Assembly (NCBI GenBank): GCA_965602015.1
Contig: OZ271918.1
Span: 864,001-928,000 of the forward strand
DNA: 64,000 nucleotides
Reading direction: 5' to 3'
Source: Salinispira sp.
GTDB lineage: Bacteria; Spirochaetota; Spirochaetia; DSM-27196; Salinispiraceae
Shown here: positions 39,280 through 60,589 of the stretch, in pieces
Layout: each line of letters starts with the position of its first letter
Position numbering within the stretch: position 1 is the stretch's first letter
The notes under the pieces: generated by a model
Databases searched by the model: none
What the model was told of the DNA's origin: nothing
The model's input: the letters and a program-made list of their open reading frames with translations, nothing else
Made by a program: the position numbers and the translations under genes

Positions 39280-39283
39280 TTTT

Positions 39284-40708
39284 CTATGTTCCCGCCTTTC
39301 CCTCGGCCAGCCAGGTTCCGAAAATCTCATCGTCGCCGGGTTTTGCGGTGGGCAGTAGATCGGAGACCCAGGTTACATTCAGAAAGTGCTTGTAGTAGAT
39401 ATTCTCGGTGGTAATGTTGCCCCCCCAGGTACCGCATCCCAGGGTAACGGTTGAGGGCATGCCGTTCCAGAAGTTCCCGCCATTACCCGGTGCCTGGGGC
39501 TGGTTGACCAGAATGCGGCTGGTGCGCTGATGCAGTCCCAGCTCTTCGACGTACGAGCGGGTATTGGTATGAATGCCGCATGAGTGGCCGGTTCCGGCGT
39601 TGTCGGTGAGCCGGGTAAGAATTTCGACGGCTTCGGGGAAGCTCCGGTATTTCCAAACCGTGAGCACCGGCGAGAGTTTTTCCCCGGCGAAGCGGTCGTC
39701 TTCAAGGGGCATCTCGCCTTCGACGACGATCATCCGTTTTCCCGACGGAATGCCGATGCCCGCGCCTTCGGCAATGGCCGCAGCGCTCCGGGCGATGATG
39801 GCCGGATTCAGGGCGCGGTATCCCGCCTTGTTCTCAACCCACATCCAGTCTTCCAGCTTGTTCCGGTCGGATCCCCGGGCGAACCATCCGCCCTCGCTCT
39901 CAAGGCAGGAGCAAAACGTTTCATATATCGACTCGTGGATAATAACCGAGTTTTCGCTGGAGCAGCTGGTTGCGTAATCGAAGCATTTGCTCACCGTTAT
40001 TTTCGCCGCAGCATCGGCGATGTCGGCGTCCTCGGCCACGATCTGCACCGCGTTGCCCGGGCCCACTCCGTAGGACGGGGTTCCGCTTGAATATGCGGCC
40101 TTCACCATGGCGCCGCCTCCGGTTGCCAGCACCAGATCCACCTGTTTCATCAGTTCATTGGTCGCGGGAATCGAGGGCTCGCGAATGATCTGGATCAAAT
40201 CCTCCGGAGCGCCAGCCTGACGCAGGCCATCGCGCATCATGTCCACCGCCAGAGCCGAACTGTTTTTCGATCTGGGGTGGGGGGCGAAGATTACCGCATT
40301 TCGGCCTTTAAGGATGGAAAGGGCATTGCTTCCCGGGGTGGCGGTTGGATTAGTAACCGGGGTAAGAGCGCCCACGACGCCAACGGGTTTGGCGTATTTG
40401 CTGATGCCCCTGGACTCGTCCCGTTCGATGAGGCCTACGGATTTGGCATCCTTTATATCCCTGAGCAGGCCAAGGATTTTTCCCTTGTGTTTTTTTATCT
40501 TGTCCTCGACATTGCCCATCCCCGTTTCCTGGACGGCGTCTGCCGCCAGCCGGGCGATGTTTCCATCGTTGTAGACCTGCCAACCGACGGCCACGCAGAC
40601 CCGGTCGATTTCTTCCTGGGTGTATGAGCTCACCGCCTCTTGGGCTCTGCGGGCTTTACCGACTAATTCGCTGATCATATCGCTGATGTGTGCATCGTGA
40701 TTGTTCAT
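39284..40708 (-). CDS. sauS: CoA-acylating aldehyde dehydrogenase, SauS-like (sulfoacetaldehyde dehydrogenase)
   Basis: 'PVTNPTATP', 'GVGPGN', 'FDYATSCSSENS', 'GEKLSP', 'LGCGTWGGN'; start at ATG 40708 after AAGGAG. Confidence 0.8.
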   Translation of the reverse strand: MNNHDAHISDMISELVGKARRAQEAVSSYTQEEIDRVCVAVGWQVYNDGNIARLAADAVQETGMGNVEDKIKKHKGKILGLLRDIKDAKSVGLIERDESRGISKYAKPVGVVGALTPVTNPTATPGSNALSILKGRNAVIFAPHPRSKNSSALAVDMMRDGLRQAGAPEDLIQIIREPSIPATNELMKQVDLVLATGGGAMVKAAYSSGTPSYGVGPGNAVQIVAEDADIADAAAKITVSKCFDYATSCSSENSVIIHESIYETFCSCLESEGGWFARGSDRNKLEDWMWVENKAGYRALNPAIIARSAAAIAEGAGIGIPSGKRMIVVEGEMPLEDDRFAGEKLSPVLTVWKYRSFPEAVEILTRLTDNAGTGHSCGIHTNTRSYVEELGLHQRTSRILVNQPQAPGNGGNFWNGMPSTVTLGCGTWGGNITTENIYYKHFLNVTWVSDLLPTAKPGDDEIFGTWLAEGKAGT

Positions 40709-40736
40709 GGGGGCTCCTTGTATTTCGGTTGGAAGC

Positions 40737-41221
40737 TTACTTGAAGTTCTCCGCCTCAATGGACTGCACAAGCTCGAAATTTTTCTGGAGGAAATCCCTC
40801 TTGAATTCCATCTTCTGGGCGAATGCCATGGCGAGCCATGCCTGGGCAATCTGGACTCCCAGGAAGGGCGCGGTTATCCAGCCGCCCATGGTTATGACAT
40901 TCGCATTGTTGATGATTTTTGCCCGCTCGCCGCTGAAAATTGAGTCAGCCACGCAGGCATACACGCCCCGGTGCTTATTGGCGACGATGGCCATGCCCTG
41001 CCCGGTCCCGCACACCAGAATCCCCTTGTCCGCCGTGCCGCTTTGCACGGCTTTTGCGACCTTCGGGGCCTGGGCGGTGTACGGCTCGGGTTTATCCGGG
41101 TCGCTGATGCCGAAATCGATGACGGTGACATCGTCCCGTTCGGCCAGAAACTCGCCGATTGCCTTTTTAGGGGGAATCCCGAAAGGTCCGATGCGATGGC
41201 TATGGTGATGTTTTCTGCCAT
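40737..41221 (-). pseudogene. rpiB: RpiB/LacAB-family sugar isomerase split by a 1-nt frameshift (possibly a sequencing error)
   Basis: N-terminus 'IAIASDLSGFPLK' is in one frame and 'AIGEFL..VIDFG...LVCGTGQGMAIVANK' in another; one extra A in the run at 41164-41168 joins them. Confidence 0.85.
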
Positions 41222-41267: not shown

Positions 41268-42203
41268 TTACTTGCTGTTGTCGATCAGCGACGATGCCGC
41301 CCGGGCAATATGCTCGGCGGTCATACCGTAGGCTTCAAGAAGCCCGTCGAGAAGCCCCACCTGTCCGAATTCGTCCTGGCTGCCGATCCGGCTCAAGCGG
41401 CAGGGAATGGCTTCCTCGGCGATGACCTCCGCCACCGCGGAACCGAGGCCGTTGTGAATATTATGGTTCTCGCAGCTCACCGCCAGTCCGGTTTTTTCCA
41501 GGGAAGATGCGATGAGCCCGCGGTCCAAGGGCTTCAGGCTCAGGGCGTCGATGACTTCCGCTTCAATACCCCGGGACGCCAGGATGTCCGCGGCTTCCAG
41601 GGTCTGCTGAAGCATAACCAAACCAAGTGAAATGAGGGTAATGTGGCTGCCGCTGCGCACGACCTTTGCCTTTCCGAGTTCGAAGTTTTCGGACTCATCG
41701 TAGTAAGTCCATCCGCCCTTGCGGTGAAGGCGGATGTACACGGTTTTGGGGTATTCGGCGATGAGGGGAAGCAGTTTCCGCAGGGAGGTTTCATCCGACG
41801 GCTCAACTATTGTGAGCTTGGGTATGTTCCGCATCAGGCCGGCGTCCTCGAAGGGCATGTGGGTACCGCCGTTGTATTGGGCGGTAACCCCCGGATCGGT
41901 TCCCACCAGTTTGACATTGAGTTGGGCATAGTTGGCCGACAGAAAGAACTGATCGTACACCCGCCGGCTGGCGAAACAGCCGAATGTGGCGGCAAAGGGA
42001 ATTTTTCCGGCGGCGGAAAGCCCCGATGCGATGCCGACCATATTTGCCTCGGCGACGCCGACGTTTATTGTCCGTTCGGGATAGGCGCTCTTGAAGCCTT
42101 TTGTTCCCGACGCTCCCATAAGGTCGGCTTCGAGAATGCATATATTCTGGTTTTTCGCGGCGAGCTCCGTCAGCACATCGTTATATACCTGTCGCATATC
42201 CAT
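41268..42203 (-). CDS. Split transketolase, C-terminal subunit
   Basis: 'NVGVAEANM', 'NGGTH', 'ENH....GLGSAV'; start at ATG 42203. Confidence 0.93.
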   Translation of the reverse strand: MDMRQVYNDVLTELAAKNQNICILEADLMGASGTKGFKSAYPERTINVGVAEANMVGIASGLSAAGKIPFAATFGCFASRRVYDQFFLSANYAQLNVKLVGTDPGVTAQYNGGTHMPFEDAGLMRNIPKLTIVEPSDETSLRKLLPLIAEYPKTVYIRLHRKGGWTYYDESENFELGKAKVVRSGSHITLISLGLVMLQQTLEAADILASRGIEAEVIDALSLKPLDRGLIASSLEKTGLAVSCENHNIHNGLGSAVAEVIAEEAIPCRLSRIGSQDEFGQVGLLDGLLEAYGMTAEHIARAASSLIDNSK

Positions 42204-42207
42204 ATTC

Positions 42208-43038
42208 TTACTTCTCCTGGTCTTCCAAGGCCCGGATGGCCTCATCTGCGGTTTCCCGGTCGAGGGGCATGTTGTGATTGCCCAAATTGTGCTCTGCGAA
42301 AGCCGCGCCTTTGCCCTTTACGGTATCCATAATGATCATGCTGGGCTTGCCTTGTACCCGTTTTGCGTTTTCGATGGCATCGTCGATGGCAGCCACGTCG
42401 TGGCCGTCTATTCTCTGGACGTGCCAGTTAAACGCGGTCCATTTGGCTGCAATATCTTCCAGACCCATGATGTCAGCCGTCATCCCGTCTATCTGCATCT
42501 TGTTGAAGTCGGTAAAGGCGATGAGGCGGTCGAGTTTGTAATGCGGAGCGGCCATGGCGGCTTCCCATATTTGCCCTTCCTGGCTCTCGCCGTCGCCAAT
42601 GCAGGCGTACACGAATGATTCCTTCTTATCCATGCGCAGACCCAGTGCAATGCCGATGGCCGCCGAAAGGCCCTGGCCGAGGCTTCCGGTAGTCATGTCG
42701 ATTCCCGGGGTGCGATTTCTATCCGCATGGCTGGGGAGGTTGGTTCCCACCACATTCAGGGTCTTTAACCAGTCGGAATGGAAAAAACCCCGGTCCGCCA
42801 GTACACTGTACAGGGCGGGGCCCGCATGGCCCTTGGAGAGGACGAACCAGTCCCGGTTATCCATCCGGGGTTGTTTCGGATCGATGTGCATCTGCCGGTA
42901 ATACAGGACGGTAAGCAGTTCGACAATGGACATCGAGCCGCCGACATGGCCGACTCCCAGGTTGGCGATTGATTCCAGGGTCATCCGGCGTATAAGGCGC
43001 GCCTTTCGCTCAAGGGTGATACGCGTGTTCTGATCCAT
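42208..43038 (-). CDS. Split transketolase, N-terminal (ThDP-binding) subunit
   Basis: 'GHVGGS', 'LSKGH', 'TGSLGQG', 'GDGESQEG', 'TVKGKG'. Confidence 0.95.
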   Translation of the reverse strand: MDQNTRITLERKARLIRRMTLESIANLGVGHVGGSMSIVELLTVLYYRQMHIDPKQPRMDNRDWFVLSKGHAGPALYSVLADRGFFHSDWLKTLNVVGTNLPSHADRNRTPGIDMTTGSLGQGLSAAIGIALGLRMDKKESFVYACIGDGESQEGQIWEAAMAAPHYKLDRLIAFTDFNKMQIDGMTADIMGLEDIAAKWTAFNWHVQRIDGHDVAAIDDAIENAKRVQGKPSMIIMDTVKGKGAAFAEHNLGNHNMPLDRETADEAIRALEDQEK

Positions 43039-43058
43039 AATAGCCTCAAGATATTTAT

Positions 43059-43075
43059 TTACTTACAGGAAATAA
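43059..43075. promoter_or_regulatory. Operator site 1, TTACTTAC-A-GGAAATAA
   Basis: Between the divergent transketolase and ROK genes; 2 mismatches to TTACTTAC-N-GTAAGTAA; flanked by TATTTA/TAAATA. Confidence 0.65.
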
Positions 43076-43118: not shown

Positions 43119-44312
43119 GTGAAGGAATTGAATACGGTGAATACGAAAAATCCGGTGAGAAGCAGCGATATCCGCGAAGCCAATGAGAAGCTCATTCTGA
43201 GCATTATACGTGAAGAGAGAAGCACCTCCCAAAGCGAGGTGGTATCCCGAACCGGGCTGAGAGCGCCGACGGTGCTGAGGTTTTTTACCGATCTTGAAGA
43301 GCGGGGATACATTCAAAAATCCGTCTCATCCGAGCCGCCAACTTCAGAGAGCGAAAAGCGCGGGCGCCGGCCGGTGTACTACGAGGTCGTGCCAGAATCC
43401 GCGTATGCCATAGGGCTCGAGTTCTGGCTGGAGTCTGCTTCGGTGGTAATCGAGGATTTTAGCGGGGAGGTGGTGTATTCCCAGATTGAAGATATTTCCG
43501 GCCGCAGCGGTAATTCCTTACCGGAGTTCCTTATGTCCCTGGTCCGGACAGGCATAAAGCATGCCGGGCTGGAAGATGCGAACATCATCGGCATCTGCGT
43601 CGCCGCACCCGGCCAGGTTGATGTGGAAACCGGCGACATAATCCAGTATTCCCGCAAGGGGCTTGCGGATATAAACCTGCGGGACTTATTCCAATCCGGG
43701 CTTTCCATACCTGTTCTCATCCAGAATAACAGCACCGCCGTCGCCTGGGATTTTTACATGAACGGACCCGGCAGAGAGCATCCGTCCCTGTTTACCATTA
43801 TGATCCGCTCCGGCGTCGGCGGAGCGTTTATCGACAACCGGGAAATTTTCGTTACCAAAACCCATACCACCCTGGAAATCGGTCATATCGCCGTGGAATA
43901 CAACGGACGGGCCTGCGACTGCGGCAGCAGCGGCTGCCTGGAAGCCTATGTGTCCGAACAGGCCATCCTCCAGGACTGCGCCTGTATACCGGGGATCAGT
44001 ACCATCGGCGATTTTGACAGTCTGGATGATGCGGCCCACAAAGAAACCGTCAGCGAATGTCTGCAATCCAAATCCGGCATGCTCGCCATGGCGGTGAGAA
44101 ACCTGATAAGCCTTTTCGGGCCGGAAATGGTGCTTATTGTGACCAGATCCCGGGTTCTCGGCGATATTCTCGCCGGTCAGGTTGCCAAGGAAGTTCGCGC
44201 CCAGTCCAGCGACCGGTGGCAGGGAGAAACCCGGATAGCATCGGCATGCTACGATCCCCTGAGAGCCGGCCGCGGGGCAGCGGAGCTGCTGTTCCGGCAA
44301 TTCCTAGGTTGA
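43119..44312 (+). CDS. ROK-family transcriptional repressor
   Basis: N-terminal HTH, 'RGRRP', 'APGQVD', 'EIGHI...CDCGSSGCLE'. Confidence 0.93.
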   Translation: MKELNTVNTKNPVRSSDIREANEKLILSIIREERSTSQSEVVSRTGLRAPTVLRFFTDLEERGYIQKSVSSEPPTSESEKRGRRPVYYEVVPESAYAIGLEFWLESASVVIEDFSGEVVYSQIEDISGRSGNSLPEFLMSLVRTGIKHAGLEDANIIGICVAAPGQVDVETGDIIQYSRKGLADINLRDLFQSGLSIPVLIQNNSTAVAWDFYMNGPGREHPSLFTIMIRSGVGGAFIDNREIFVTKTHTTLEIGHIAVEYNGRACDCGSSGCLEAYVSEQAILQDCACIPGISTIGDFDSLDDAAHKETVSECLQSKSGMLAMAVRNLISLFGPEMVLIVTRSRVLGDILAGQVAKEVRAQSSDRWQGETRIASACYDPLRAGRGAAELLFRQFLG

Positions 44313-44322
44313 GAGGCAATAC

Positions 44323-46389
44323 ATGTCAGCATTAGAGCAATCGTCAGGGTCTGGGGAGCAATACGCCGCTTTGTCCCTCACGGGAGAATTTACCGAGGAT
44401 TCCTTTTCCATCTTCTTTAAAGACCGGCTCATAATCCGGCACAGCCCCGACGACCCCTGCCTTGCCAGCGGTGAAGGGCGGGGGACATACCGCTTTGTCT
44501 ATGGACTGTTCAAAATTTCCGACAACATTACCAAACGACATGAGCACATCGGCTATGAGCGGCGGGAGCATACTGCTGACGGATTTACCCTGTCCTTCGA
44601 TAACGGCGCTACCCTGTCCTGTATGGTTCGACAGGGACGGCTGCACATAAGCGTCAAAACCAGCTCTCCGGAAAACCGGACTAACCGGGTATGGCTGCAG
44701 GTCCAGGGCCTTGCCGGCGAGCGTGTCTACGGCGGCGGTGAGCAGTACAGCTACCTCGATTTAAAGGGGAGAACGCTTCCGGTGTGGGTTCAGGAGCCGG
44801 GGCTCGGCCGCGGGCGGGACCTGGTGACGCTACGGGCGGAGCTCAAGTCGGGTTACGGCGGCAGCTGGTTTTCCACCTACTTCGCCCAGCCGACCTTCCT
44901 GTTTTCCCGGGGCGCGTATATCCACTGTGAATCCAGCGCGTATATGGAGGCGGATTTCAGGAAGGATGGAAAATATGAATTTGCAGTGTGGGAAGGGGAT
45001 TTCACCCTCGTCCTCGATGTGAATAAACAACCCCTGGACCTAATCGAGTCGCTTACGGGGTACATCGGCCGTCAGCCCCGGCTACCCGATTGGGCCTATG
45101 ACGGGTTGTGGCTTGGAACCCAGGGGGGGCGGGAAACCACGGGGCAGCGAATGAAAAAGATGCAGGCCGCCGGTGTGAAGATCGCCGCGCTCTGGTGTCA
45201 GGACTGGGAGGGCAAACGGGAAACCAGCTTTGGCAAACAGTTGTTCTGGGACTGGATCTTCAGCAGTGAGCTGTATCCAGACCTGCCCGGCTATATTAAA
45301 GAGCTAAAAAAGCAGCACGTCCGCTTTCTGGGCTATATCAATCCCTTCCTGGCCATTGAGGGAGAGCTCTACAAAACCGCTGCGAAGAACGGGTACTGCG
45401 TAAAAGATCCTTCGGGCAAGGATTACCTGGTAACCATAACCGACTTCCCCGCGGCGATGATCGACCTGACCAATCCCGAGTGCCGAACATGGATAAAATC
45501 AATTATCCGGTCGAATATGATCGACATCGGACTCGCCGGCTGGATGGCCGACTTTGGTGAATATATTCCGGCGGACGCCGTGTTCTACGACGGTTCGAAT
45601 GCCGAGCACTTTCATAACCGCTATGTGGTGGAGTGGGCAAAAATCAACCGAGAAGCCGTGGATGACGCGGGTAAGCGGGATGAAATCATCTTCTTTATGC
45701 GCGCGGGTTACAGCGGCAGCCAGGCCTTCGCATCGGCATTCTGGAACGGGGACCAGTTGGTAAACTGGAGCCGTCACCAGGGTCTTCCCACCGTCATTCC
45801 CGGCAGCCTTTCTCTCGGCCTCATCGGGGCCGGGTATGTACATAGTGATCTGGGCGGATATACCACAATCTTTCATCTTAAGCGGAGTAAAAGGCTGATG
45901 ATGCGCTGGGCCGAGCTATCGGCATTCAGTCAGACCATGCGCAGCCACGAGGGCAATCGGCCGCACATAGGGTGGCCCCTGGATGGGGATGATGAAACCA
46001 TGAAACATCTGGCGCGCATGACCGGCATCTTCACCGACTTGAAACCCTATCATCAGGAACTCTCGCAAGAATACCAGGAGAAGGGCACACCTCCAATGCG
46101 TCATCTTTGGCTGCACTATCCTGATGATCCTCAGATTCGAAACCGGAAGCTTCAGTACCAATACCTGTATGGTCCGGATCTTCTGGTGGCGCCGGCGTAT
46201 AAGCGCTTTTCCCGGTTTCGCACAGTATATCTGCCCTCTGATGACTGGGTGCATATGTGGACCGGCAAACCGTATCCCCGGGGGTGGGCGAGGGTTCCCG
46301 CTGTTCTCGGCTCCCCGCCGGTTTTCTACAGAAAACCGTCACGTTGGTCTGATTTTTTCAAGACTCTGGCAGATCGCTGGTCTTCGTGA
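44323..46389 (+). CDS. yihQ: GH31 sulfoquinovosidase-like glycosidase 1
   Basis: 'GGGEQYS', 'QDWEG.R.TSFGKQLFWDW', nucleophile 'WMADFGE', 'WNGDQ', 'HSDLGGY', 'RSHEGNRP'. Confidence 0.88.
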   Translation: MSALEQSSGSGEQYAALSLTGEFTEDSFSIFFKDRLIIRHSPDDPCLASGEGRGTYRFVYGLFKISDNITKRHEHIGYERREHTADGFTLSFDNGATLSCMVRQGRLHISVKTSSPENRTNRVWLQVQGLAGERVYGGGEQYSYLDLKGRTLPVWVQEPGLGRGRDLVTLRAELKSGYGGSWFSTYFAQPTFLFSRGAYIHCESSAYMEADFRKDGKYEFAVWEGDFTLVLDVNKQPLDLIESLTGYIGRQPRLPDWAYDGLWLGTQGGRETTGQRMKKMQAAGVKIAALWCQDWEGKRETSFGKQLFWDWIFSSELYPDLPGYIKELKKQHVRFLGYINPFLAIEGELYKTAAKNGYCVKDPSGKDYLVTITDFPAAMIDLTNPECRTWIKSIIRSNMIDIGLAGWMADFGEYIPADAVFYDGSNAEHFHNRYVVEWAKINREAVDDAGKRDEIIFFMRAGYSGSQAFASAFWNGDQLVNWSRHQGLPTVIPGSLSLGLIGAGYVHSDLGGYTTIFHLKRSKRLMMRWAELSAFSQTMRSHEGNRPHIGWPLDGDDETMKHLARMTGIFTDLKPYHQELSQEYQEKGTPPMRHLWLHYPDDPQIRNRKLQYQYLYGPDLLVAPAYKRFSRFRTVYLPSDDWVHMWTGKPYPRGWARVPAVLGSPPVFYRKPSRWSDFFKTLADRWSS

Positions 46390-46458
46390 GCACCACTAGT
46401 TAGCTCACGAATCACCGAGAAATTCGCTTGCGGATATCGATAAATCGGGTATAATTAC

Positions 46459-46475
46459 TTACTTATTGTAAGTAA
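46459..46475. promoter_or_regulatory. Operator site 2, TTACTTAT-T-GTAAGTAA
   Basis: Immediately downstream of TATAAT (46450-46455), upstream of the cupin/ABC operon. Confidence 0.7.
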
Positions 46476-46523: not shown

Positions 46524-47279
46524 ATGACAAAAAGCGGTCAGCTGTTTAGCGCAGATGCCAGCCGATGCGAATTAAAAGAGTTATTCAACCACCACACCTC
46601 CAATCTCGATGGTCTGAGCGCTGCGGAAATTCGAATACAGAATTCTATCAGTCCGCCATTCGCCTTTGAAGGTGAGGAAGTACTGCTGTTTAACCTGGGG
46701 GCGCCGCTTACCGCCCGGGTGAACGGAGCAGACTACCAGCTGGCCCATTACGATGTTCTCTATGTCCCGCTCAACAAGGGTTTTAGGCTAAGCCACAATG
46801 GAGATGAACCGGGTCTTGTGTATGCGTATCGGGCGACCGGTACTGAAGACTACCCGGTGTTCCATTCCGGCTATGAAGACGCCAGGAAGAGTAAAGAGCG
46901 CATCCGCCACCTGAACCGGAAAGTCGTGTATAAAATGTTCGATGTCTCCGAGGGGGCCAACAAATTCATGGCGGGCTATACATTCTACGACGACCACACC
47001 AGAGCCTGGCCGCCTCATAACCACACCGATCAAGAGGAGGTCTACAGCTTCATCGAAGGCAAGGGCGCCATGACGGTATACGAAGACGATGAACACCAGA
47101 CCTTTGTGACATCGGTAAAGGTGGGAAGCCACGTTACCATTCCGGTGCTCAATTACCATCCGGTGTTCAGTCACGATGAGCCCCTGTGTTTTATCTGGTG
47201 CATCGCCGGGGAACGGTATTGGGTAGGGGACAAAAACACCGACTTCATGAAGGGAGACGGGGAAAAGATAACCACGTAA
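46524..47279 (+). CDS. IolB/KduI-like bicupin isomerase
   Basis: 'YDVLYVP', 'AWPPHNH...EEVY.F', 'NYHP', 'FIW' resemble the 5-deoxyglucuronate isomerase metal site. Confidence 0.75.
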   Translation: MTKSGQLFSADASRCELKELFNHHTSNLDGLSAAEIRIQNSISPPFAFEGEEVLLFNLGAPLTARVNGADYQLAHYDVLYVPLNKGFRLSHNGDEPGLVYAYRATGTEDYPVFHSGYEDARKSKERIRHLNRKVVYKMFDVSEGANKFMAGYTFYDDHTRAWPPHNHTDQEEVYSFIEGKGAMTVYEDDEHQTFVTSVKVGSHVTIPVLNYHPVFSHDEPLCFIWCIAGERYWVGDKNTDFMKGDGEKITT

Positions 47280-47398: not shown

Positions 47399-48655
47399 AT
47401 GAAGCTTGTGTACCGCAGTACGGTAATTCTAATGGTGCTGTCCGCAATGGTGCTATTAGCTGTGGGCTGCAGTCCCGCGGAAGAAGAGGTAGTGGTTCTG
47501 AACTTCCCGACTTTCTGGGTCGGACAGGATTCAAAGGCTGAACCCATCGCCGCCCTTGTTGAGAGTTTCAACAACATGTATGAGGGGCAATATCAGGTTG
47601 TTATCGAGCCGAATCCCGATACCGACGGATATCGTGATAAACTGAACACCCAACTGGCTTCCGGACAGGCTCCGGACATCTTTGTATTCAATCCCGACCC
47701 CACCACCTTCCAGTACTACGAAAGCGACATCCTCATGGATTTCACCGACGAACTGACCGGCGCATGGGCTTCGGATTTTGTCAGCAGCTATATCACCGAC
47801 AGCACCCGAAACGGGGCTATTAAGTCCGTGCCCTTCGAAATCGGCATCACCCCGGTATGGTACAACATGGACCTTCTGGCCCGGGCAGGCGTTGACGAGA
47901 TTCCGGCGACCATCGAAGATTTCTACGTCATGGCTGAAGCGCTCAAAGCCGAAGGAATTGTTCCCGGCAGCCAAATGACCGGCGGTTCCAATGCGTGGAC
48001 CAGCATGCTCTGGTACAGTCACATAGTCGGCAGCATCGGCGGACCCGATGTATGGTCCAAGCCCCTGACCGATCCGGTTTTTGTTGAAGCGGCAGCGGTT
48101 CTCCAGCAGCTGTACCAAAACGGCAATACCACCAGGGACGCGGTAGGCGGGGACGCCGGTGTCTCAGGAGGACACTTCCTGGCTTCCAATACCGCGACTT
48201 TTATCAACGGTCCCTGGTACATCGGCCGTATCCGCGGCGATGCTCCGGAAGTCCACGCGGTAACCCGTCTGGCTCCGGCTCCCCAGGTAGGCGATTACTC
48301 CGGACATCAGATCGGTTTTATGCTTTCAAACCTGGCGGCGGCCAATACCGATGATCCCCGCCGGAGGGAGGCGGTCATCACATTCTTGAAACACATGACC
48401 GATCCGGACAATGTGAAAATGGTCAGCGAAGCGGCGGGTTCCCTGTTCGCCATAAAGTACGAGCTCGGCGCCAACGCCGATCCCCTTCAGCGGGAATTCG
48501 TACGGGCGGCCAGCGAGGCCACCTTCGTCATCAACCACTTCCAGTCGGCCTTCGACATAGCGGTTGTGCAGGAATTCGGACAGGCCCTGGCGCTTTTGGC
48601 CCTCGATGAAGCGACTCCCGAAGAGTTTGTCCAGGCCTTGGTAGACGCCCAATAA
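47399..48655 (+). CDS. Carbohydrate ABC substrate-binding lipoprotein
   Basis: Lipobox AVGC; 'ASGQAPDIF', 'WYN.DL', 'NGPW'; AGGAGG RBS before ATG 47399. Confidence 0.9.
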   Translation: MKLVYRSTVILMVLSAMVLLAVGCSPAEEEVVVLNFPTFWVGQDSKAEPIAALVESFNNMYEGQYQVVIEPNPDTDGYRDKLNTQLASGQAPDIFVFNPDPTTFQYYESDILMDFTDELTGAWASDFVSSYITDSTRNGAIKSVPFEIGITPVWYNMDLLARAGVDEIPATIEDFYVMAEALKAEGIVPGSQMTGGSNAWTSMLWYSHIVGSIGGPDVWSKPLTDPVFVEAAAVLQQLYQNGNTTRDAVGGDAGVSGGHFLASNTATFINGPWYIGRIRGDAPEVHAVTRLAPAPQVGDYSGHQIGFMLSNLAAANTDDPRRREAVITFLKHMTDPDNVKMVSEAAGSLFAIKYELGANADPLQREFVRAASEATFVINHFQSAFDIAVVQEFGQALALLALDEATPEEFVQALVDAQ

Positions 48656-48760
48656 GTAAGTATGCCCTGAGCTGCCAGGCTCTCGGCCACGACGGTCGTC
48701 CGGTCTGTATCCTTGGCCGGACGGCCGCACTATTTCACCGTACCCCAGGGAGAACCGCCA

Positions 48761-49651
48761 ATGCGTGTCCGAAGCAAAAAAAATGCCTTGTGGATATTAC
48801 TTTTCCTCGCCCCGGTTTTGATTTTGTACGGACTGTACTTCATCTATCCTCTTGGTTTTATTTTCGTCACCAGCACGCTCGACTGGAACGGTATAAGCGA
48901 ACCGGTTTTTGTTGGTTTGCAGAATTATGTAAAGAATTTTTCCAACGCCACCTTTCAAATATCCCTTCGAAATAATGCGGTGTGGCTATTCGCCAACGGT
49001 ATTCTTCAAATAAGTATGGCCGCCCTCGTAGCCCTCATACTGGCAAGGCAGCCGAAAGGGTGGCGCTTCCTGAGAACCGCGTATTTTCTTCCGAATGTCA
49101 TCTCCCAGGTCGCCATCGCCATGATGTGGGCCGCCCTGTACAATGCGGAGTACGGCGCCATCAATCAATTCCTCTCGGCGATCGGGCTTAACGAGCTGAC
49201 CCGAAACTGGCTTGGGGAACTCAATACCGCCCTCCCGGCAATTATTATCCAGCAGATTTTTTACATCGGATATTTCATGATTATCATTCTCGCCTCGCGC
49301 ATGACTATTCCCGAAAGCCTCTATGAAGCCGCGGAAATGGACGGGGCAAACGCCGTTCAGCAGGACTGGTTCATCACCCTCCCCATGATAAAGCCGATAC
49401 TTATCACCGCAATGACCCTGGCCATGGCCTATGGTCTCAGGCATTTCGAGGCTACATTCCTTTTAACAAACGGCGGGCCGGCGAACCGAACCTCCGTTCT
49501 GGGAATCATGATGTATAAGCGCCTGAGCTCACTTGATTACGGTGAGGCCGCCGCCATCGGCGTTACCCTGGTGATTTTGGGGCTCATTATGATCGTCGTA
49601 ATTCGCAGCACCATCGGGCGCAGAGATTCCGCCTCCGATGTAACGCAATAG
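48761..49651 (+). CDS. Carbohydrate ABC permease 1
   Basis: 'FVGLQNY', EAA loop 'LYEAAEMDGA', 'LTNGGP'. Confidence 0.92.
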   Translation: MRVRSKKNALWILLFLAPVLILYGLYFIYPLGFIFVTSTLDWNGISEPVFVGLQNYVKNFSNATFQISLRNNAVWLFANGILQISMAALVALILARQPKGWRFLRTAYFLPNVISQVAIAMMWAALYNAEYGAINQFLSAIGLNELTRNWLGELNTALPAIIIQQIFYIGYFMIIILASRMTIPESLYEAAEMDGANAVQQDWFITLPMIKPILITAMTLAMAYGLRHFEATFLLTNGGPANRTSVLGIMMYKRLSSLDYGEAAAIGVTLVILGLIMIVVIRSTIGRRDSASDVTQ

Positions 49652-49662
49652 GGGAGGGCACA

Positions 49663-50511
49663 ATGGCAATCGTTCGTTACGAAACCTCGGGAGACAGGGT
49701 CGGCAAAATCGCCAAGTGGCTGATTCTCGGTTTTTTCTTCCTGTTCACCTTCATGCCGCTGGTATGGCTGCTAATATCGAGCTTCAAGACGAATCTCGAG
49801 CTGCAAATTGCCCCCTTCAGTCTGCCTGAGGTGTGGCAGATTTCCAATTACATCAACGCTTTGAAGATCAGCGGTCTGCCGCGGCTCTTTTTGAACAGCT
49901 TTGTCGTGTCAACTGCATCAACGGCGCTGACAATCCTGGTTACTTCCATGGCGGGTTTTGTGTTTTCCCGGGAGGTTTTCCGGTTTCGTCAGTCCATTCT
50001 CAATCTGATCATCGCCGGCGTTCTGGTCCCCATCATCGCCCTCATGGCCCCCTATTTCAGACTTACCGCGGCCCTCGGCATATATGACACTCTGCTCGCC
50101 CTGATTCTGACCTACACCGCTATAAACATTCCGATTTCCACATTCCTGATGTACGGATTTATGCAGACCCTACCCAAGGAGCTGGAGGAGGCGGCCACCA
50201 TCGACGGAGTAGGATTCGCCGGCCGCTATTGGAAAATCATATTACCGCTGAGCAAATCGGGGATTGTCACCGCGGGAACATTTGTTTTCCTATTCAGCTG
50301 GAATGAATTCATTTACGCCCTGCTGCTGACCTCCCGCCCCGCCGCCCGTACGCTTCAGCTCGGAATCCGTTTTTTCGTAAGTCAATTCTTTACGGATAAT
50401 ACATCCATGTTCGCCGCCATCGTACTGACCATGCTGCCCACTGTTTTGCTGTACGTATTTATGCATGAACAGATTATCAAGGGCTTAACCAGCGGTTCGG
50501 TGAAAGGGTAG
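49663..50511 (+). CDS. Carbohydrate ABC permease 2
   Basis: 'ELEEAATIDG', 'WNEF', 'GSVKG'. No ATPase gene lies in the locus. Confidence 0.92.
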   Translation: MAIVRYETSGDRVGKIAKWLILGFFFLFTFMPLVWLLISSFKTNLELQIAPFSLPEVWQISNYINALKISGLPRLFLNSFVVSTASTALTILVTSMAGFVFSREVFRFRQSILNLIIAGVLVPIIALMAPYFRLTAALGIYDTLLALILTYTAINIPISTFLMYGFMQTLPKELEEAATIDGVGFAGRYWKIILPLSKSGIVTAGTFVFLFSWNEFIYALLLTSRPAARTLQLGIRFFVSQFFTDNTSMFAAIVLTMLPTVLLYVFMHEQIIKGLTSGSVKG

Positions 50512-50707: not shown

Positions 50708-51553
50708 ATGAAGCCGGGTAGAAAAATCAGTGGACTCTCACAACAAACACCGGAAGGTAACCATGAGCTGAGCTCTGACGCAGCCAATCTTCCCTTGCCG
50801 CTGGAGATAGTCGAAAATGACACCGAGCTGTACTGGCTCATGGCCCTGGAGCTCTACGGGGCTCTTGCCAGGCTCACTCCCGGAGAATCCCTGCGCTGCA
50901 TCGCTCCGGTGGGGCCGGTTTTCCAGTACCGACGATTTATCAGGCTTGTTGACGAGCTCCCCATTGATTTGGCCGGGCTTCATCTGTTTTTTATGGACGA
51001 ATACCTTAACGACGACGGAAGTGTTATTAATAGGACCGATCCTCTTTCGTTCCGCGGCTTCATCGATAAGGAACTCGTCGAACCGCTGGGGACCCGGCAC
51101 GGCTTCAATCCCGGGCAGCTGTATTTTCCCGACCCCGCTGATCCGTCTTCCTACGACCGCATCATCGATGAACATGGGGGCATCGATGTCTGCTTCGCCG
51201 GTGTGGGAATCAACGGACATCTGGCATTCAACGAAGCGCCGAGCGCCGCCGATTCGCCTTCCAGAGTGGTGGAGCTGTCCGCCGAAACCCGGGTCACTAA
51301 CGGCCATACCGCCCTGGGGGGCGACTGGGAGAGCATTCCCCGGCTTGCCGTCACTGTCGGGATGAAGAGCATACTCGCGAGCCGAAGGCTTCGAATCTAC
51401 TGTAACCGTCCATGGCAGCGATCGGTGGTGCGTAAGCTGCTGTACGGACCGGTCGGTCAGGCCTTTCCGGCATCATTCGCGCAAAACCACCGGGATGCCC
51501 GGCTCACGGTCACAAGGACTGTTGCCGAATCGCCCCGGCCGGGGCTGAAGTAG
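50708..51553 (+). CDS. NagB-like glucosamine-6-phosphate isomerase/deaminase family protein
   Basis: 'FMDEY', 'GGID', 'G.G.NGHLAFNE', 'AVTVGM', 'PAS'; has 'PVGP' in place of the canonical 'ATGST' loop. Confidence 0.82.
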   Translation: MKPGRKISGLSQQTPEGNHELSSDAANLPLPLEIVENDTELYWLMALELYGALARLTPGESLRCIAPVGPVFQYRRFIRLVDELPIDLAGLHLFFMDEYLNDDGSVINRTDPLSFRGFIDKELVEPLGTRHGFNPGQLYFPDPADPSSYDRIIDEHGGIDVCFAGVGINGHLAFNEAPSAADSPSRVVELSAETRVTNGHTALGGDWESIPRLAVTVGMKSILASRRLRIYCNRPWQRSVVRKLLYGPVGQAFPASFAQNHRDARLTVTRTVAESPRPGLK

Positions 51554-51560
51554 ATACGCT

Positions 51561-52516
51561 ATGGAACTAATTGATTTTCATGTGCACGGCGGGCCGCCCA
51601 AACGCAGCGAAGAAATCACCCGCTATATAAATGAGAGCGGCATTGCAGCCATGGGCATGCTCTCCCTTCCCTGCCTCCTTTGTATGCCTGTGCCACCCTC
51701 AATGACGAGATCCTGGAAACCGCCCGCCGCGTGGATGCCGCCCGGCCGGGCTTTCCGCTTGTTCTCTTCGGCTCCCTCGATGATGAAAAATTACGGGTAT
51801 CAGGCTATGAACCCGAAGAAATGGTGGACGATTTGAAGTCCCGGGGCTTCGGCGGTGTGAAACTCTGGGAGGGCAAACCCCATCTTGTCAGGCGACTTTC
51901 GATGCTTCCCGATGACAGGCGCTTCGTTTTGCTGTGCCGCCGGGCAGCCCAGCTCTCCATGCCGGTCATTTTCCATATTGCGGATCCCCCGGCATTCTGG
52001 AAAAACGGCGGCCCCTATGCCTCCGACGATTCGCTTCCGGGCTTTTCCGACCTTATTGAAGCCGCAAGCCGCCTGGCATCTTTAGCGCCCCAATGCACCT
52101 TCATTTTTCCCCACATGCTGTTTCTCGCCGGGGACCTTGGAGTTGCCGCCCGCTTCCTTGATGAGCACCCGTCTTGTTACTTCGACCTGGCTCCCGGGAA
52201 CTACCTGTTTGCCGATTTGGCCTTGCGCAGGGAGGAGGCTGCTGCGTTTTTCGCACGGTATTCGAAGCGCATTGTATTCGGCACCGACGGCTTCTGGTTC
52301 GACCCCGGTGACAAGACCCTCGCCGGTGACAGCTACGGTGGAAACCTGCTGCGCTTCACCAGACTTCTGGATTTCCTGTCTACGGACCGGCAATTTGACA
52401 ATCCATTTGGCTTTAGCGTTGAAGCCCACCCCCGCATTACCGGCCTCAAGCTGCCGGAAAGCATCCTTCGTCCCATTCTTTCTGAGAATGCAAAGGTCAT
52501 TATGGAGGCCCTATGA
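51561..52516 (+). pseudogene. Amidohydrolase-2 family protein with a 1-nt frameshift near 51670-51682 (possibly a sequencing error)
   Basis: 'IDFHVH' in frame 51561; 'GFGGVKL', 'PVIFH', 'FPH', 'IVFGTD', 'ILSENA' in frame 51680. Confidence 0.8.
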
Positions 52517-53631
52517 TGCGCTGTGCCGTCGCCGGATTGGGTATCGGACTGGCCCATGTCGCCGGCTATTTTGCATCGCCGGATGCCGAACTCGTCGCCG
52601 TTGCCGACCCGTGGGAACCACGTAGGCAGTCCCTCGGCGGAACCTTCGGGCAGGGGAGCATGAGGGTTCTCGAACCCCTGTTCGACGAGGGGCAAAAATC
52701 TGCCAGTTGGGACGAGCTGGGGATAGCGGCGTATGCGGACATATCGTACCTGGCTGAACGCCGCGATATTGATGTGGTCAGTATCTGTACGCCGGCCTAC
52801 CTGCACGAACAGCATGCCCTCTTGCTTCTGGAGGCGGGGAAACACATCATCCTCGAAAAGCCCATTGCCCTGAGTTTGGAGGCGGCGGAGAATATACGCC
52901 GAGCAGCCCGAAGGCTCGGGCTCACGGTGGCTGTGGCCTATGAGTTTCGGGAGAACCCCGCAATCATCGCGTTGAAAGGCCTCGTTGAAGCGGGGGAGTT
53001 CGGGGATATTAGCGCATGGAGCCTGTATCACACCCGCAGGCCCTTCCGAAGGGATAAATGGAATGGCTGGATTCAAAAGCAGGAGAACTGCGGAGGACTG
53101 CTGACCGAGGAAACATCTCATTGGTTCGATCTTCTCTGCCATGTAAGCGGGGATGCAATAACATCGGTGTACTGCCTGGGATCTGCTTCTATCCATGGGG
53201 ATTTTGATTATGAGGATATCGCGTTCTGTCAGGGGAGGATGCAAAGAGGGGCGGTCTGGCAGTTGTCCCACGCGCTTACCAGCCACGATTTCGCCTTGAC
53301 AATCGAGGTTCACGGTACCCGGAGGATGGCCCGGCTATCGCTCAAAGAGGGAGCGTACAGCAGCTTCGACGGCGGCCAAAGCGATTACTGGGGCATACTC
53401 AGCCACGGCCCTGTGAACGGCGGCCCCGGCGATGCGGAAATTACGCGCTGGTCAAGAGAGGCCGGAGAACCCGAGAGTATCAGGGATAACGTGGTTCGGG
53501 TAGTGCAATGCCTCCGCGGCAACAGACCGCTGCCGGTGGGCATTGAAGACGCCATCAGGGCGCTCCGGATATCCCTGGCGGCCAGGGAAAGCATGAACAG
53601 CGGAACTGTTATCGAGATTCCACTGGCTTGA
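52513..53631 (+). CDS. Gfo/Idh/MocA NAD(P)-dependent oxidoreductase
   Basis: 'AVAGLG.G..H', 'ICTP..LH', 'LEKP', 'GGLL....SH.FD'. Confidence 0.92.
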   Translation: MMRCAVAGLGIGLAHVAGYFASPDAELVAVADPWEPRRQSLGGTFGQGSMRVLEPLFDEGQKSASWDELGIAAYADISYLAERRDIDVVSICTPAYLHEQHALLLLEAGKHIILEKPIALSLEAAENIRRAARRLGLTVAVAYEFRENPAIIALKGLVEAGEFGDISAWSLYHTRRPFRRDKWNGWIQKQENCGGLLTEETSHWFDLLCHVSGDAITSVYCLGSASIHGDFDYEDIAFCQGRMQRGAVWQLSHALTSHDFALTIEVHGTRRMARLSLKEGAYSSFDGGQSDYWGILSHGPVNGGPGDAEITRWSREAGEPESIRDNVVRVVQCLRGNRPLPVGIEDAIRALRISLAARESMNSGTVIEIPLA

Positions 53632-54271
53632 TTCTGATATTGTCCCCTGTGATGCCCACGTATGCCCCCCGCTGCGCTGCGGGGGATTCGGGATGGCAGA
53701 GCATCCATTTGTTTTTCATGAAGTACGTCGGGTCATCAGACTGCGGAGTTTCCAGGGGGCGGTTGGTTCCCTCCGGAAGGATGATAATCGTGCAAAAGGG
53801 ATGTTCGCTCACCCGGCACGGGGCAAGATGAAGCGTGTTGCCGTATAATTCGACCAGGCTTCCCGCCGGCAGATAGAACGGGACCGCCATTGAGGAATCC
53901 CACGTGAAATCGGTAATATCCTCGGCTCTGCCGAGAAATAGCACCACATCGCTCACCGCAACGATAACCTCGCTTCCCCGATGATACTCCATACCGTTCA
54001 TTCGGTCGTTCATGCCGAAGCATAATCCCGCCTGCAGGGCAGTGGAATTGCCGTATACCTCCGATCGGATTTTTGAAAATGACTCGAAGTGCTTCAGAAC
54101 TTCCAACTCCCGCTTGTATGCCGGACCTTCCAGATCAACCTCGGTCAGCGCCTGTACAAACATCTCGCTGCAGTCTATCCCACGAACCAAACGGCCGTAT
54201 CTCGCCAAATCCGGAGAATCTGCGGGAAGTATCCGCAGGGGGGCATTTGCCTTGTTTAATTGCTCTAACAT
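53609..54271 (-). CDS. DUF4867-like cupin-fold protein (seen in sulfoglycolysis clusters)
   Basis: 'MEYHRGSE', 'ELY..TLH.APC', 'LPEGTN.PL', 'NKW...HPE'. Confidence 0.8.
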   Translation of the reverse strand: MLEQLNKANAPLRILPADSPDLARYGRLVRGIDCSEMFVQALTEVDLEGPAYKRELEVLKHFESFSKIRSEVYGNSTALQAGLCFGMNDRMNGMEYHRGSEVIVAVSDVVLFLGRAEDITDFTWDSSMAVPFYLPAGSLVELYGNTLHLAPCRVSEHPFCTIIILPEGTNRPLETPQSDDPTYFMKNKWMLCHPESPAAQRGAYVGITGDNIRIKPVESR

Positions 54272-54298: not shown

Positions 54299-54455
54299 GG
54301 CGCCGCAGCCAAACCGCTGCCGCCAAACCGGCGCCGCAGCCAAACCGCTGCCGCCAAACCGGCGCCGCAGCCAAACCGGCGCTGCCACCCGACCAGCGCC
54401 GCAGCCAAACCGCCGCAGCTCAAATCGGCGCGGCAGGCCAATCTGCGCCGCAGCC
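54299..54455. repeat. Intergenic GC-rich tandem repeat (17/14-bp subunits forming 31-bp units)
   Basis: GGCGCCGCAGCCAAACCGCTGCCGCCAAACC twice exactly, then further exact and degenerate GGCGCCGCAGCCAAACC copies. Confidence 0.9.
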
Positions 54456-56437
54456 TATTGACCTGCCAGCTCGGCAAACAGCCCGGCCCAGCGGGATTCG
54501 AGCCGGTAGAATACCGGCGGCTGGCCGTAGGGGGCATCGATCGGCCGGGTCCCGCCGCGGTATTCCGATCCGCTAAAAACGTGAATCCATCGGTCATCGG
54601 GAAAGTACACCGCTCGCTCTGCGGCTTGCTCCTTCACCACTGGGGCCACGAGAATATCCCGGCCCAACAGATATTGCTGGCTATCTTCGTATGCCCGGTC
54701 TTCTTCGTAGTAGAAAAACAGCGGTCTGATTGCCGGAACTCCCTGCTGGTAGTACTCATCCAACACCCCCAGCAGGTAGGGTTTGAGTCGTTTGTGGATT
54801 CTGCTGAAAAGGGCAGTGAGGGACACCGTCAATCCGTCATGGTCGAACTGAACGTTGTCCTTCGGCCGGTTGCCCTCATGGCTCCTCATGAGCGGAGAGA
54901 AGCAGCTCATCTCAAGCCACCGGATATACAGATCCCTCGATCGTTTAATAGATGCCACCGTGATGTATCCGCCGATATCGGAATGGCTGACTCCCATTCC
55001 GCTGAGTCCGGCGGAGATTTGAGCGCGGATGACCGAACCCATTCCGTAATCATCGCTAAAGTCGCAGTGCTGGTCGCCGTTCCACAACATGCCAGCGTGG
55101 CGGCTGGTTCCGGAATACGCGGCCCGGACAAAGAAAAACACGTCTTCCCCGGCGCCCGATTCGACAAGGGCTTCGCGGTTCATTCTGCTCCAGAGCACGG
55201 GCCACAAATTATGAATCAGCTCCGGGTCGCCGGCATGAAGGATGCAGTCGGTGGGCAGATATTCGCTGAAATCCGCCATCCACCCTGAAAGCCCGTAGCC
55301 GATCATATTGGTTTTGACGATGGCTTTCATCCATTCGAAAGCATCCGGGTTGGTCAGGTCCACCATCCCCACGGGGAAACTGGTAGTTTTTACGATATAC
55401 GGCTGCCGGTGCTGGTTTACTACAAGATACCCCCGCGATTCGGCTTCGGCGTATTGCTCGCCGTCGCACGCCAGGAATGGATTAATGTATCCCAGGAATC
55501 TGATGCCCTCCCGCTTCCATTCGCTAATTTTGTGCCGCAGTCCGGGGTAGAGATTCTCATCGGCCTTCCAGTTCCAGAATAACTGTTTGCCGAAGCCGGT
55601 TATCCGCTCGCCCTGCCAGTCCTGCGCCCATATGCCGCACAGCTCGGCGCCGGCCCGCTTCATCGCCCCAACTTTCTCTTCGCATACCGAGCTGCCTCCC
55701 TGGATTCCGAGAATGATGCCGTCGTGAATCCACTCGGGAAGTCTCGGTTGGATGCCCAGGCGTGTATTCAGCTCTCCAACCAGATCTGTGTAGTTCCGGG
55801 CGAATGTCAACACAATTTCTGCCGGCGCTGTGGAAAAGCTCAAGCTGTGACAATCACCGGCGCGGAAATCCAGGACGGCATGGGCTGAGGTATCCACATG
55901 ACAGGAATAGCGGGCCGTGGATATAAAATCAGGTTGTACCTGATATGTGGAATATTTTTCAAATGGCATCGGTTTTTTTATGCCAAGGAGTTTGAGAAGT
56001 TCCTTCCTGATGATCGACCAGGTGGTGGTGTGTTCGCTGATCCAGTTGATCACCCTGCATCCCCTGAGGTTGAAGCGGGCGAATTGTTCGCCGCAGCCGA
56101 AAATCATCTCATCCTTATCCGCCGCAAATTTCACCCTGACAGCCTGATCCTCGGCTAGGTTTCGAAAGCTGAGGCTGACTGAGTTCCCGGTTTCACGAAT
56201 ATCAATGCTGACTTTCTGGAATGCCAGGCTTATGCATTCGCTCTCGCTGATTTCTCCCCGGCCCGCGGAAAAGAATCGGGTCCGGTCCCGTATGCGGAAA
56301 TGACCCTTCTTCATGGCGAAGGTCTGTCGGCGTTTTCCGACAAAGAACGCCGGATCCCCCGGGGAATGCGAAAGAAGGAGACGGTCATTCCAGCGCAGCT
56401 CGAGGACGTGATTATTTGCCTCCAGCTTTATGCTCAT
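54455..56437 (-). CDS. yihQ: GH31 sulfoquinovosidase-like glycosidase 2
   Basis: 'FGCGEQF', 'WAQDWQG.R.T.FGKQLFWNW', 'WMADFSE', 'WNGDQ', 'HSDIGGY', 'RSHEGNRP'. Confidence 0.88.
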   Translation of the reverse strand: MSIKLEANNHVLELRWNDRLLLSHSPGDPAFFVGKRRQTFAMKKGHFRIRDRTRFFSAGRGEISESECISLAFQKVSIDIRETGNSVSLSFRNLAEDQAVRVKFAADKDEMIFGCGEQFARFNLRGCRVINWISEHTTTWSIIRKELLKLLGIKKPMPFEKYSTYQVQPDFISTARYSCHVDTSAHAVLDFRAGDCHSLSFSTAPAEIVLTFARNYTDLVGELNTRLGIQPRLPEWIHDGIILGIQGGSSVCEEKVGAMKRAGAELCGIWAQDWQGERITGFGKQLFWNWKADENLYPGLRHKISEWKREGIRFLGYINPFLACDGEQYAEAESRGYLVVNQHRQPYIVKTTSFPVGMVDLTNPDAFEWMKAIVKTNMIGYGLSGWMADFSEYLPTDCILHAGDPELIHNLWPVLWSRMNREALVESGAGEDVFFFVRAAYSGTSRHAGMLWNGDQHCDFSDDYGMGSVIRAQISAGLSGMGVSHSDIGGYITVASIKRSRDLYIRWLEMSCFSPLMRSHEGNRPKDNVQFDHDGLTVSLTALFSRIHKRLKPYLLGVLDEYYQQGVPAIRPLFFYYEEDRAYEDSQQYLLGRDILVAPVVKEQAAERAVYFPDDRWIHVFSGSEYRGGTRPIDAPYGQPPVFYRLESRWAGLFAELAGQ

Positions 56438-57895: not shown

Positions 57896-57922
57896 TATTA
57901 TTACTTACGGTAAGTAATAATA
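57896..57922. promoter_or_regulatory. Operator site 3, perfect 13-1-13 palindrome
   Basis: TATTATTACTTAC-G-GTAAGTAATAATA, upstream of the symporter operon. Confidence 0.8.
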
Positions 57923-58630: not shown

Positions 58631-58680
58631 GCTTCAATAGTATACGAGCGGTGGGAGATGGTCAAACTCCTGACTTTTTA

Positions 58681-58734
58681 TTGACATTATAGATTGTTTG
58701 AATTACATTGTGTAATACTTTGATCAATCAAAGT
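58681..58734 (+). promoter_or_regulatory. troA promoter with a palindromic operator
   Basis: TTGACA-N17-TACATT; ACTTTGAT-CA-ATCAAAGT at 58717-58734; ATTACA-N3-TGTAAT over the -10. Confidence 0.7.
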
Positions 58735-58748
58735 GTAAGGAGAAGAAT

Positions 58749-59828: not shown

Positions 59829-59830
59829 CA

Positions 59831-60588
<758 letters not shown>

Positions 60589-60589
<1 letters not shown>

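Follow-up and report, generated by a model that had tools for sequence, protein, structure and literature searches.

We abbreviate sulfoquinovose, a sulfosugar that is abundant in plants, as SQ and 6-deoxy-6-sulfofructose as SF. Reviews put the production of SQ at about 10 billion tonnes per year and, as far as these sources describe it, the same isomerisation is the first step in three routes of SQ breakdown. Enzymes of two folds have been described for this step. According to the same kind of overview (PMC11659671, PMC12890257, PMC9594981), one of these enzymes is YihS, from PF07221, and the other is SqvD, from PF02952 (the FucI fold); SqvB belongs to DUF4867. As outlined in these papers, the sulfo-transketolase (sulfo-TK) pathway has a published variant that yields sulfoacetate, and this variant matches a gene island that we describe here, except for SqvD.

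The island lies in a stretch of 64,000 nucleotides from Salinispira sp., which we will call the window. Relative to the sulfoacetate variant from Acholeplasma, the island has all of the downstream gene types and a DASS gene beside SqwKL, and SqvD is replaced by a cupin. We are fairly confident that this cupin is a third, metal-dependent class of SQ isomerase, as judged from comparative genomics: across related genomes, it is present where neither of the known enzymes for this step was found. The pathway is known, and the cupin is likely a new enzyme class for a known reaction. We found no cupin SQ isomerase described in the literature, whose cluster figures or supplementary tables could still show the gene.

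An SQ gene island without a known SQ isomerase

The island includes homologs of all the components of the sulfoacetate variant (SqwG, SqwH, SqwI, SqwD, SqwK, and SqwL), clustered with a homolog of SQase, with the Sqw assignments based on family and gene order and not on direct comparison with characterised Sqw sequences (Table 1). The true start of the SqwD/SauS-like gene is near 40708. The frameshift in the SqwI-like gene lies in a run of A near 41163, where the contigs of three of four runs have one extra base; the four runs are from one sample, possibly the source of this DNA, and the fourth run has no coverage there. The frameshift is likely an assembly error.

Table 1. Features of the SQ island, with positions in the window
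Feature	Positions	Strand	Basis or remark
DASS/SLC13 anion transporter, candidate sulfoacetate exporter	35740..37224	-	TIGR00785; next to SqwKL in most clusters
Two-subunit ADP-forming CoA ligase, SqwKL-like	37214..39330	-	Family scans; role as far as described in PMC11659671
CoA-acylating sulfoacetaldehyde dehydrogenase homolog, SqwD/SauS-like	39284..40849	-	NF047625 is the best NCBIfam match (515 bits, below the cut-off of 600)
RpiB-family SqwI-like sulfoerythrose isomerase, frameshifted	40737..41221	-	Family scan
Transketolase C subunit, SqwH-like	41268..42245	-	Family scan, tree
Transketolase N subunit, SqwG-like	42208..43038	-	Family scan
Operator between the transketolase operon and the ROK gene	43055..43075	.	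24.4 bits
ROK-family regulator	43119..44312	+	PF00480 plus HTH
GH31a, YihQ-type sulfoquinovosidase homolog	44323..46389	+	NF007746, 834 bits; 661 bits to E. coli YihQ
Operator upstream of the cupin, inverted repeat	46455..46475	.	27.6 bits, the top-scoring site of the genome; inferred site of the ROK regulator
KduI/IolB-fold bicupin, candidate SQ to SF isomerase	46524..47279	+	ORF of 251 amino acids
Sugar ABC transporter (binding protein, two permeases), after the cupin	47399..50511	+	Pfam
NagB-like, amidohydrolase, and Gfo/Idh/MocA trio	50708..53631	+	Family scans; trio found with FucI-type isomerases too
DUF4867 (SqvB/SftX) protein	53609..54271	-	PF16161, 196 bits
GH31b (second YihQ-type GH31) and GPH-family MFS transporter	54455..57879	-	Family scans
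Third operator, upstream of the MFS-GH31b-DUF4867 unit	57897..57917	.	22.7 bits

Two other features of the region may be related to its function. Trios of NagB-like, amidohydrolase, and Gfo/Idh/MocA genes are also found behind ABC permeases in other clusters (L133, L134, L137, L183, L185, L186, L055, and L003), and they possibly feed another sulfosugar or glycoside into the pathway. At 57974-63275, the island is adjoined by a DtxR-like regulator and a TroABCD-like manganese/zinc ABC transporter, which we identified by eye from the translations. The transporter could supply metal, or its location could be a coincidence.

GH31b (54455-56437) matches YihQ at 592 bits. Both GH31 proteins of the window keep Q288, W304, and Y508 of YihQ, as well as the catalytic D405 and D472, and both have Gln at the position of R301 (we take Q288, R301, W304, and Y508 to be the residue numbers in YihQ). 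All six of the matched solved SQase sequences have Arg there. With Gln in place of this Arg of the sulfonate pocket in both proteins, the identity of the incoming glycoside is less certain. This would fit with a different reading of the cupin, namely that it isomerises a related sulfosugar (such as 6-deoxy-6-sulfomannose, also listed as sulforhamnose, or sulfofucose) and that the clusters serve that sugar; there are mannose- and lyxose-type isomerases among the cupin folds, as far as PMC8378251 covers them. But the R301Q variant is spread across clusters with the cupin and clusters with FucI-like genes alike, and nine GH31 proteins of cupin loci have Arg. Because the variant does not track the type of isomerase, it gives no reason to link the cupin with a different sugar, and we consider this reading unlikely.

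The initial annotation had recognised no YihS or SqvD/SftI-type gene in the island, and we did not find one there either. The genome of the window (G000) is a single contig and is 99.67% complete, and we searched all of it. An HMM built from 20 FucI-like proteins of SQ clusters had no hits in the genome or its ORFs, and an HMM built from 34 such proteins had no hits at E ≤ 1 among the genome's 16,783 ORFs. A search with E. coli YihS also gave no hits, while the positive control in E. coli scored 993 bits. Searches of the genome for the Pfam families of both isomerases were empty, but these are insensitive, as the same search missed the cupin itself.

A bicupin of the KduI/IolB superfamily

The initial annotation described the first gene behind the second operator as a bicupin. 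Indeed, the ORF is present behind an inverted repeat, and it belongs to the KduI/IolB superfamily (PF04962, 37.5 bits versus a gathering cut-off of 23.9). The protein is not a member of either NCBIfam equivalog: it scores 41.2 bits against KduI (NF002091, cut-off 250) and 19.2 bits against IolB (TIGR04378, cut-off 205). It matches neither PF02952 nor PF07221 in Pfam scans, and its fold is unrelated to those of SqvD/SftI (the FucI fold) and YihS (the AGE fold). It is also much shorter than the FucI-like proteins of the clusters considered here (~440-470 amino acids).

We predicted the structure of the cupin from an alignment of 99 rows, which gave a two-barrel cupin with a pLDDT of 92.1; we used this model instead of the one from the single sequence, whose pLDDT was 32.7. 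The top structural matches of the model are tied: KduI (Z = 23.9, rmsd 2.3 Å over 215 aligned residues) and the IolB-like STM4420 (Z = 23.4). Oxalate decarboxylases and other bicupins are next behind, with Z = 20-22, so the function cannot be read from the fold by itself. By sequence, the cupin is nearer to KduI than to IolB while lying outside both equivalogs, and its significant matches in the PDB are KduI chains only (best E = 4.9e-6). The likeness to IolB that was originally noted therefore holds for the fold and superfamily, but by sequence, KduI is the closest of the characterised relatives. The cupin family includes 1,268 proteins at E ≤ 0.001. Its next relatives are a more distant family of IolB-like bicupins of ~250-270 amino acids (P0161-P0270, 60-100 bits).

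The cupin contains the motifs RAWPPHNHTDQEEVY and NYHP. The metal-site pattern and the YHP motif that were given originally are both present, except that the gap from the second His to EE was one position too short in the pattern. This style of motif (PPH...EE.Y and YHP) is shared with IolB (IolB-like PDB 2qjv), while RxWPPHNHTDQEE and WCIAGERYW are specific to the cupin's own family. All 99 rows of the alignment have H165, H167, E172, and H212, which we predict to be the metal ligands. These residues align with H198, H200, E205, and H248 of KduI, which are its ligands as far as described in PMC10792219. R126, R128, R160, R231, Y232, and W233 are also invariant in the family.

The cupin and KduI thus share the bicupin fold, the His-His-Glu-His set, and, if our prediction is correct, aldose-ketose chemistry on an anionic six-carbon sugar. 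The cleft of KduI binds sulfonate buffers, according to the portion of PMC10792219 that deals with it. But the two proteins are just 15-19% identical in the structural alignment, and the cupin has a sulfosugar context. In a pairwise alignment, the cleft residues T184 and Y207 of KduI are kept (as T153 and Y174), while R163 is changed to K, T194 to A, R203 to Q, and M262 to I.

Database names label the cupin family as 5-deoxy-glucuronate isomerase. In agreement with these names and with the Pfam assignment, the cupin might be a divergent KduI or IolB whose substrates are intermediates of uronate or inositol metabolism, and it would then be just a passenger in the island. Given the scores far below both equivalog cut-offs and the loss of the catalytic R203, T194, and M262 of KduI, we think that this is highly unlikely. 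There is no inositol gene cluster among the annotated neighbors.

The cupin and FucI-like genes exclude each other

We examined 401 genomes of the class, using the cupin, a FucI-like protein from an SQ cluster, and an intact relative of SqwI as queries, and we mapped 80 regions. The cupin subfamily is present in 27 of the 401 genomes (at least 59% identity; the next matches are at 21-40%). Across the whole sample, no genome shares the cupin with FucI clade 1 (27 and 21 genomes), but only ~1.4 would be expected to, so this overlap is uninformative alone. We relied instead on the genomes with the sulfo-TK pathway. SqwI is present in 66 genomes, and transketolase was beside it in every region that we fetched.

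Among these 66 sulfo-TK genomes, 22 contain the cupin, 37 contain a FucI-like ortholog, and none contain both. Two are ambiguous (G550 and G360), and five have neither: four of these clusters are on contigs of under 8 kb (G616, G337, G353, and G645), and the fifth is a long-branch cluster without GH31 (G394). Most of these seven assemblies are fragmented. Fisher's exact test gives p ~ 9e-12 for the exclusion, which is overstated because related genomes are not independent. All 11 of the FucI-like proteins that we tested matched PF02952 (5 of them above the cut-off), and our label of SqvD-like for these genes comes from their family and context rather than from alignment to a characterised SqvD sequence. 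Matches to the FucI profile in the 27 cupin genomes reach 143 bits at most, as compared to 489-691 bits for the orthologs in clusters, and the best match to YihS is 34 bits (in 3 genomes); none of the 27 has a YihS ortholog. The anti-correlation across SQ clusters that the initial annotation had asked about is clear in this sample.

The two types of gene also occupy the same positions. In the arrangement ROK-X-ABC, X is the cupin in L055 and FucI in L153, L155, and L156. In X-TK-TK-SqwI-SqwD-K-L-DASS, X is the cupin in L024, L025, L042, L044, and L045 and FucI in L163 and L172. In TAL-ALDH-X, X is the cupin in L246 and L250 and FucI in L161 and L171. This one-for-one swap, with the same operator, transporter, and downstream enzymes, argues against a different sulfosugar as the cupin's substrate. 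The cupin would share with SqvD/SftI its reaction, its place in the pathway, and its partners in both sulfo-TK and sulfo-TAL clusters; with YihS it would share the reaction. For SqvD, the activity has been published (PMC9594981).

When we mapped the cupin onto a tree of the transketolase C subunit, its distribution required 9 changes, of which at least 4 are forced by well-supported branches. (This is a quick tree with 85 of 88 rows; L029, L031, and L148 were too short and were dropped, and 22 extra cupin loci were added.) So many changes suggest that the distribution of the cupin reflects repeated exchange rather than a single lineage. The FucI-like orthologs that fill the slot of the SQ isomerase in spirochaetes (L133-L189) are themselves of three clades, with 20, 14, and 3 members in clades 1, 2, and 3. 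The clades are 22-30% identical to each other, suggesting several separate recruitments.

Could the cupin be an accessory protein, for ring opening or as a mutarotase, with isomerisation carried out by SqwI, DUF4867, the NagB-like protein, or a TIM-barrel protein? One of these, DUF4867, is also a metal cupin whose function is unclear; no mutarotase or kinase activity was detected for it, as far as PMC11968277 reports. Also, AP_endonuc_2 TIM barrels are found in 28 of 109 loci near non-spirochaete copies of the cupin. But an accessory protein would accompany SqvD, and we saw both in 0 of the 66 genomes. The NagB-like and DUF4867 proteins, which had been put forward as alternative isomerases, co-occur with FucI-like genes (in 6 fetched loci, namely L133, L134, L137, L183, L185, and L186, and in 16 loci, respectively), so they are unlikely replacements and we rejected both. 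In the best 80 of 284 genome loci around the cupin, DUF4867 accompanies it in 14 and a NagB-like gene is near it in only 3. We also rejected SqwI, which is absent from the transaldolase clusters, and Pfam shows no TIM-barrel gene in the island of the window. Overall, an accessory role seems quite improbable. Comparative genomics instead supports the original proposal that the cupin is a non-orthologous replacement for the conversion of SQ to SF, as its predicted activity.

A shared operator

We derived an operator matrix de novo from the regions that precede transketolase in clusters that lack the cupin (27 usable of 30); its consensus is TTACTTTCAGTAAGTAACTAA. The matrix scores 21-30 bits upstream of transketolase in all 13 usable remote clusters of cupin genomes. 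In the window, the operator of the cupin is a perfect inverted repeat, TTACTTAC-N5-GTAAGTAA, which overlaps a TATAAT at 46450-46455; a scan for sigma-70 promoters found none on the + strand at its threshold. We infer that the ROK protein binds these operators. Three sites in the genome score above 14 bits, and all three are in the island, so the genome has no co-regulated gene, isomerase or other, away from the island; a co-regulated isomerase elsewhere would have counted against the proposal.

Some cupin genes of spirochaetes stand alone, outside any SQ cluster, and 12 spirochaete copies share a housekeeping block with phosphoglucomutase or alpha-galactosidase, as might be expected if the cupin were a passenger acting on uronates or inositol intermediates. 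But the operator of the island is retained at the stand-alone copies, and the same genomes have sulfo-TK clusters without FucI at other positions. The matrix scores 11.8-30.1 bits upstream of 17 of the 21 stand-alone copies (0 of 60 shuffles for each), many of which are close kin with an identical site; it fails at the other four (L005, L023, L026, and L038). Stand-alone copies of the cupin appear, from these sites, to belong to the SQ regulon.

The matrix does not fit the non-spirochaete loci or a second group of spirochaetes, which shows another palindrome. Upstream of the cupin in L024-L045, we noticed a second operator-like palindrome (similar to GTTAAAGACTTTAAC), which goes with a different clade of ROK proteins that are 22-26% identical to the window's ROK.

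The cupin in other pathways and phyla

An SF-consuming enzyme is present in 26 of the 27 cupin genomes of spirochaetes: 22 have SqwI and transketolase, 3 have a transaldolase, and G446 has a SqwG-like gene (65%) with a ROK gene at the end of a contig. In the remaining genome, G324, we did not find an SQ pathway. In G423, G373, and G408, which lack SqwI, the transaldolase is directly behind the cupin. The transaldolase from G423 scores 273 bits against the SF transaldolase of B. megaterium, as compared to 151 bits for the best ordinary transaldolase. A neighboring protein scores 356-371 bits against PDB entries 8qc2, 8qc3, and 8zn9, which we take to be GH188 SQases. G373 and G408 carry relatives at 97% and 66%. 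What sulfo-TK and transaldolase clusters share is the need for sulfofructose. That the cupin adjoins close homologs of a characterised SF transaldolase and of GH188 also fits poorly with a related sulfosugar as the substrate.

Among the best 80 of 284 genome loci around the cupin, 27 have transketolase within the stretch. We also considered the best 80 of 366 metagenome loci, which were picked with divergent members of the cupin family. Among those of at least 9 kb, 12 of 22 have a transaldolase, a transketolase, or a SuyB-like gene, and 10 of 22 have no SF-pathway markers. There were no hits to FucI or YihS in either set of 80 loci. In 22 non-spirochaete genomes, YihS had no hits, in a search without a positive control, and the FucI profile scored at most 134 bits, except for 216 bits in G666.

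Some non-spirochaete copies (L075, L072, L282, and L300) are beside a PfkB kinase and/or a LacD-type (tagatose-bisphosphate) aldolase, with a DeoR regulator. These loci are a possible EMP-like route for a sulfosugar, and they are among the points that would favor a related sugar as the substrate.

Acidobacterial-type clusters (L066, L068, L064, L074, L077, L223, L274, and L298) combine the cupin with a Gfo and TIM-barrel pair, a transaldolase, an aldehyde dehydrogenase, a LarA-family racemase, and split SuyAB-like genes. Three of them have a SorA-like sulfite dehydrogenase. From their gene content, these clusters are a candidate for a complete route of SQ mineralisation with a nickel racemase. 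The SuyB-like protein matches galactarate dehydratase only. We could not assign the acidobacterial transaldolase to SqvA, as it is nearer to ordinary transaldolases (256 versus 163 bits). Transaldolases unlike SqvA and 63-64% identical to the acidobacterial one are also found, with aldehyde dehydrogenases, in sulfo-TK clusters of the FucI type (L161:2490-5481 and L171:2034-4279). We propose these as candidates for a second clade of SF transaldolases, in a bifurcated pathway.

Proposed mechanism

We propose the following scheme. Derepression by ROK would switch on the three units, and GH31 would release SQ. By analogy to KduI and to the cupin phosphoglucose and lyxose isomerases (for the latter, as far as described in PMC8378251), the C-terminal barrel would hold a divalent metal with H165, H167, E172, and H212. 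This metal would bind O1 and O2 of open-chain SQ, and a hydrogen would be moved from C2 to C1 by an enediol or a hydride shift, as is debated for the cupin phosphoglucose isomerases. Candidate residues of the sulfonate pocket are Arg126, Arg128, Arg160, Arg231, and Tyr232/Trp233. SF would then be converted by SqwGH, SqwI, SqwD, and SqwKL to two xylulose-5-phosphate, sulfoacetate, and ATP. KduI and IolB use open-chain acids, and under this analogy the ring opening of SQ would need explaining.

As far as PMC8378251 describes them, the cupin phosphoglucose isomerases are a precedent for a metal cupin that isomerises a gluco-aldose with an anionic group at C6. But they are shorter, single-barrel proteins of ~190 amino acids that act on a phosphate substrate, and their sequence matches to the cupin are weak and non-significant (E = 0.18-0.95).

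Implications

A 2026 survey of genomes (PMC13372026), as far as its methods are laid out, uses an SQ isomerase as one of its references for both sulfo-TK and sulfo-TAL, and it retains only those genomes in which all hits are within 10 ORFs. Such criteria would drop 22 of the 66 sulfo-TK genomes of spirochaetes in our sample, or a third.

More tentatively, and with slightly less than even confidence, we suggest that there is a third class of SQ isomerase, which evolved independently and marks a hidden set of sulfoglycolytic bacteria across Spirochaetota, Acidobacteriota, Verrucomicrobiota, and Planctomycetota. This set would include an undescribed acidobacterial route, within a single organism, to sulfite: glycoside cleavage by the Gfo/TIM-barrel pair, the cupin isomerase, the second type of SF transaldolase, an aldehyde dehydrogenase, a nickel-dependent sulfolactate racemase of the LarA type, a SuyAB-like lyase, and a sulfite dehydrogenase.

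If the cupin is an SQ isomerase, then a family that is now mislabelled as 5-deoxy-glucuronate isomerase would have a function, and a third fold for SQ isomerisation would be a clear example of convergence among enzymes.
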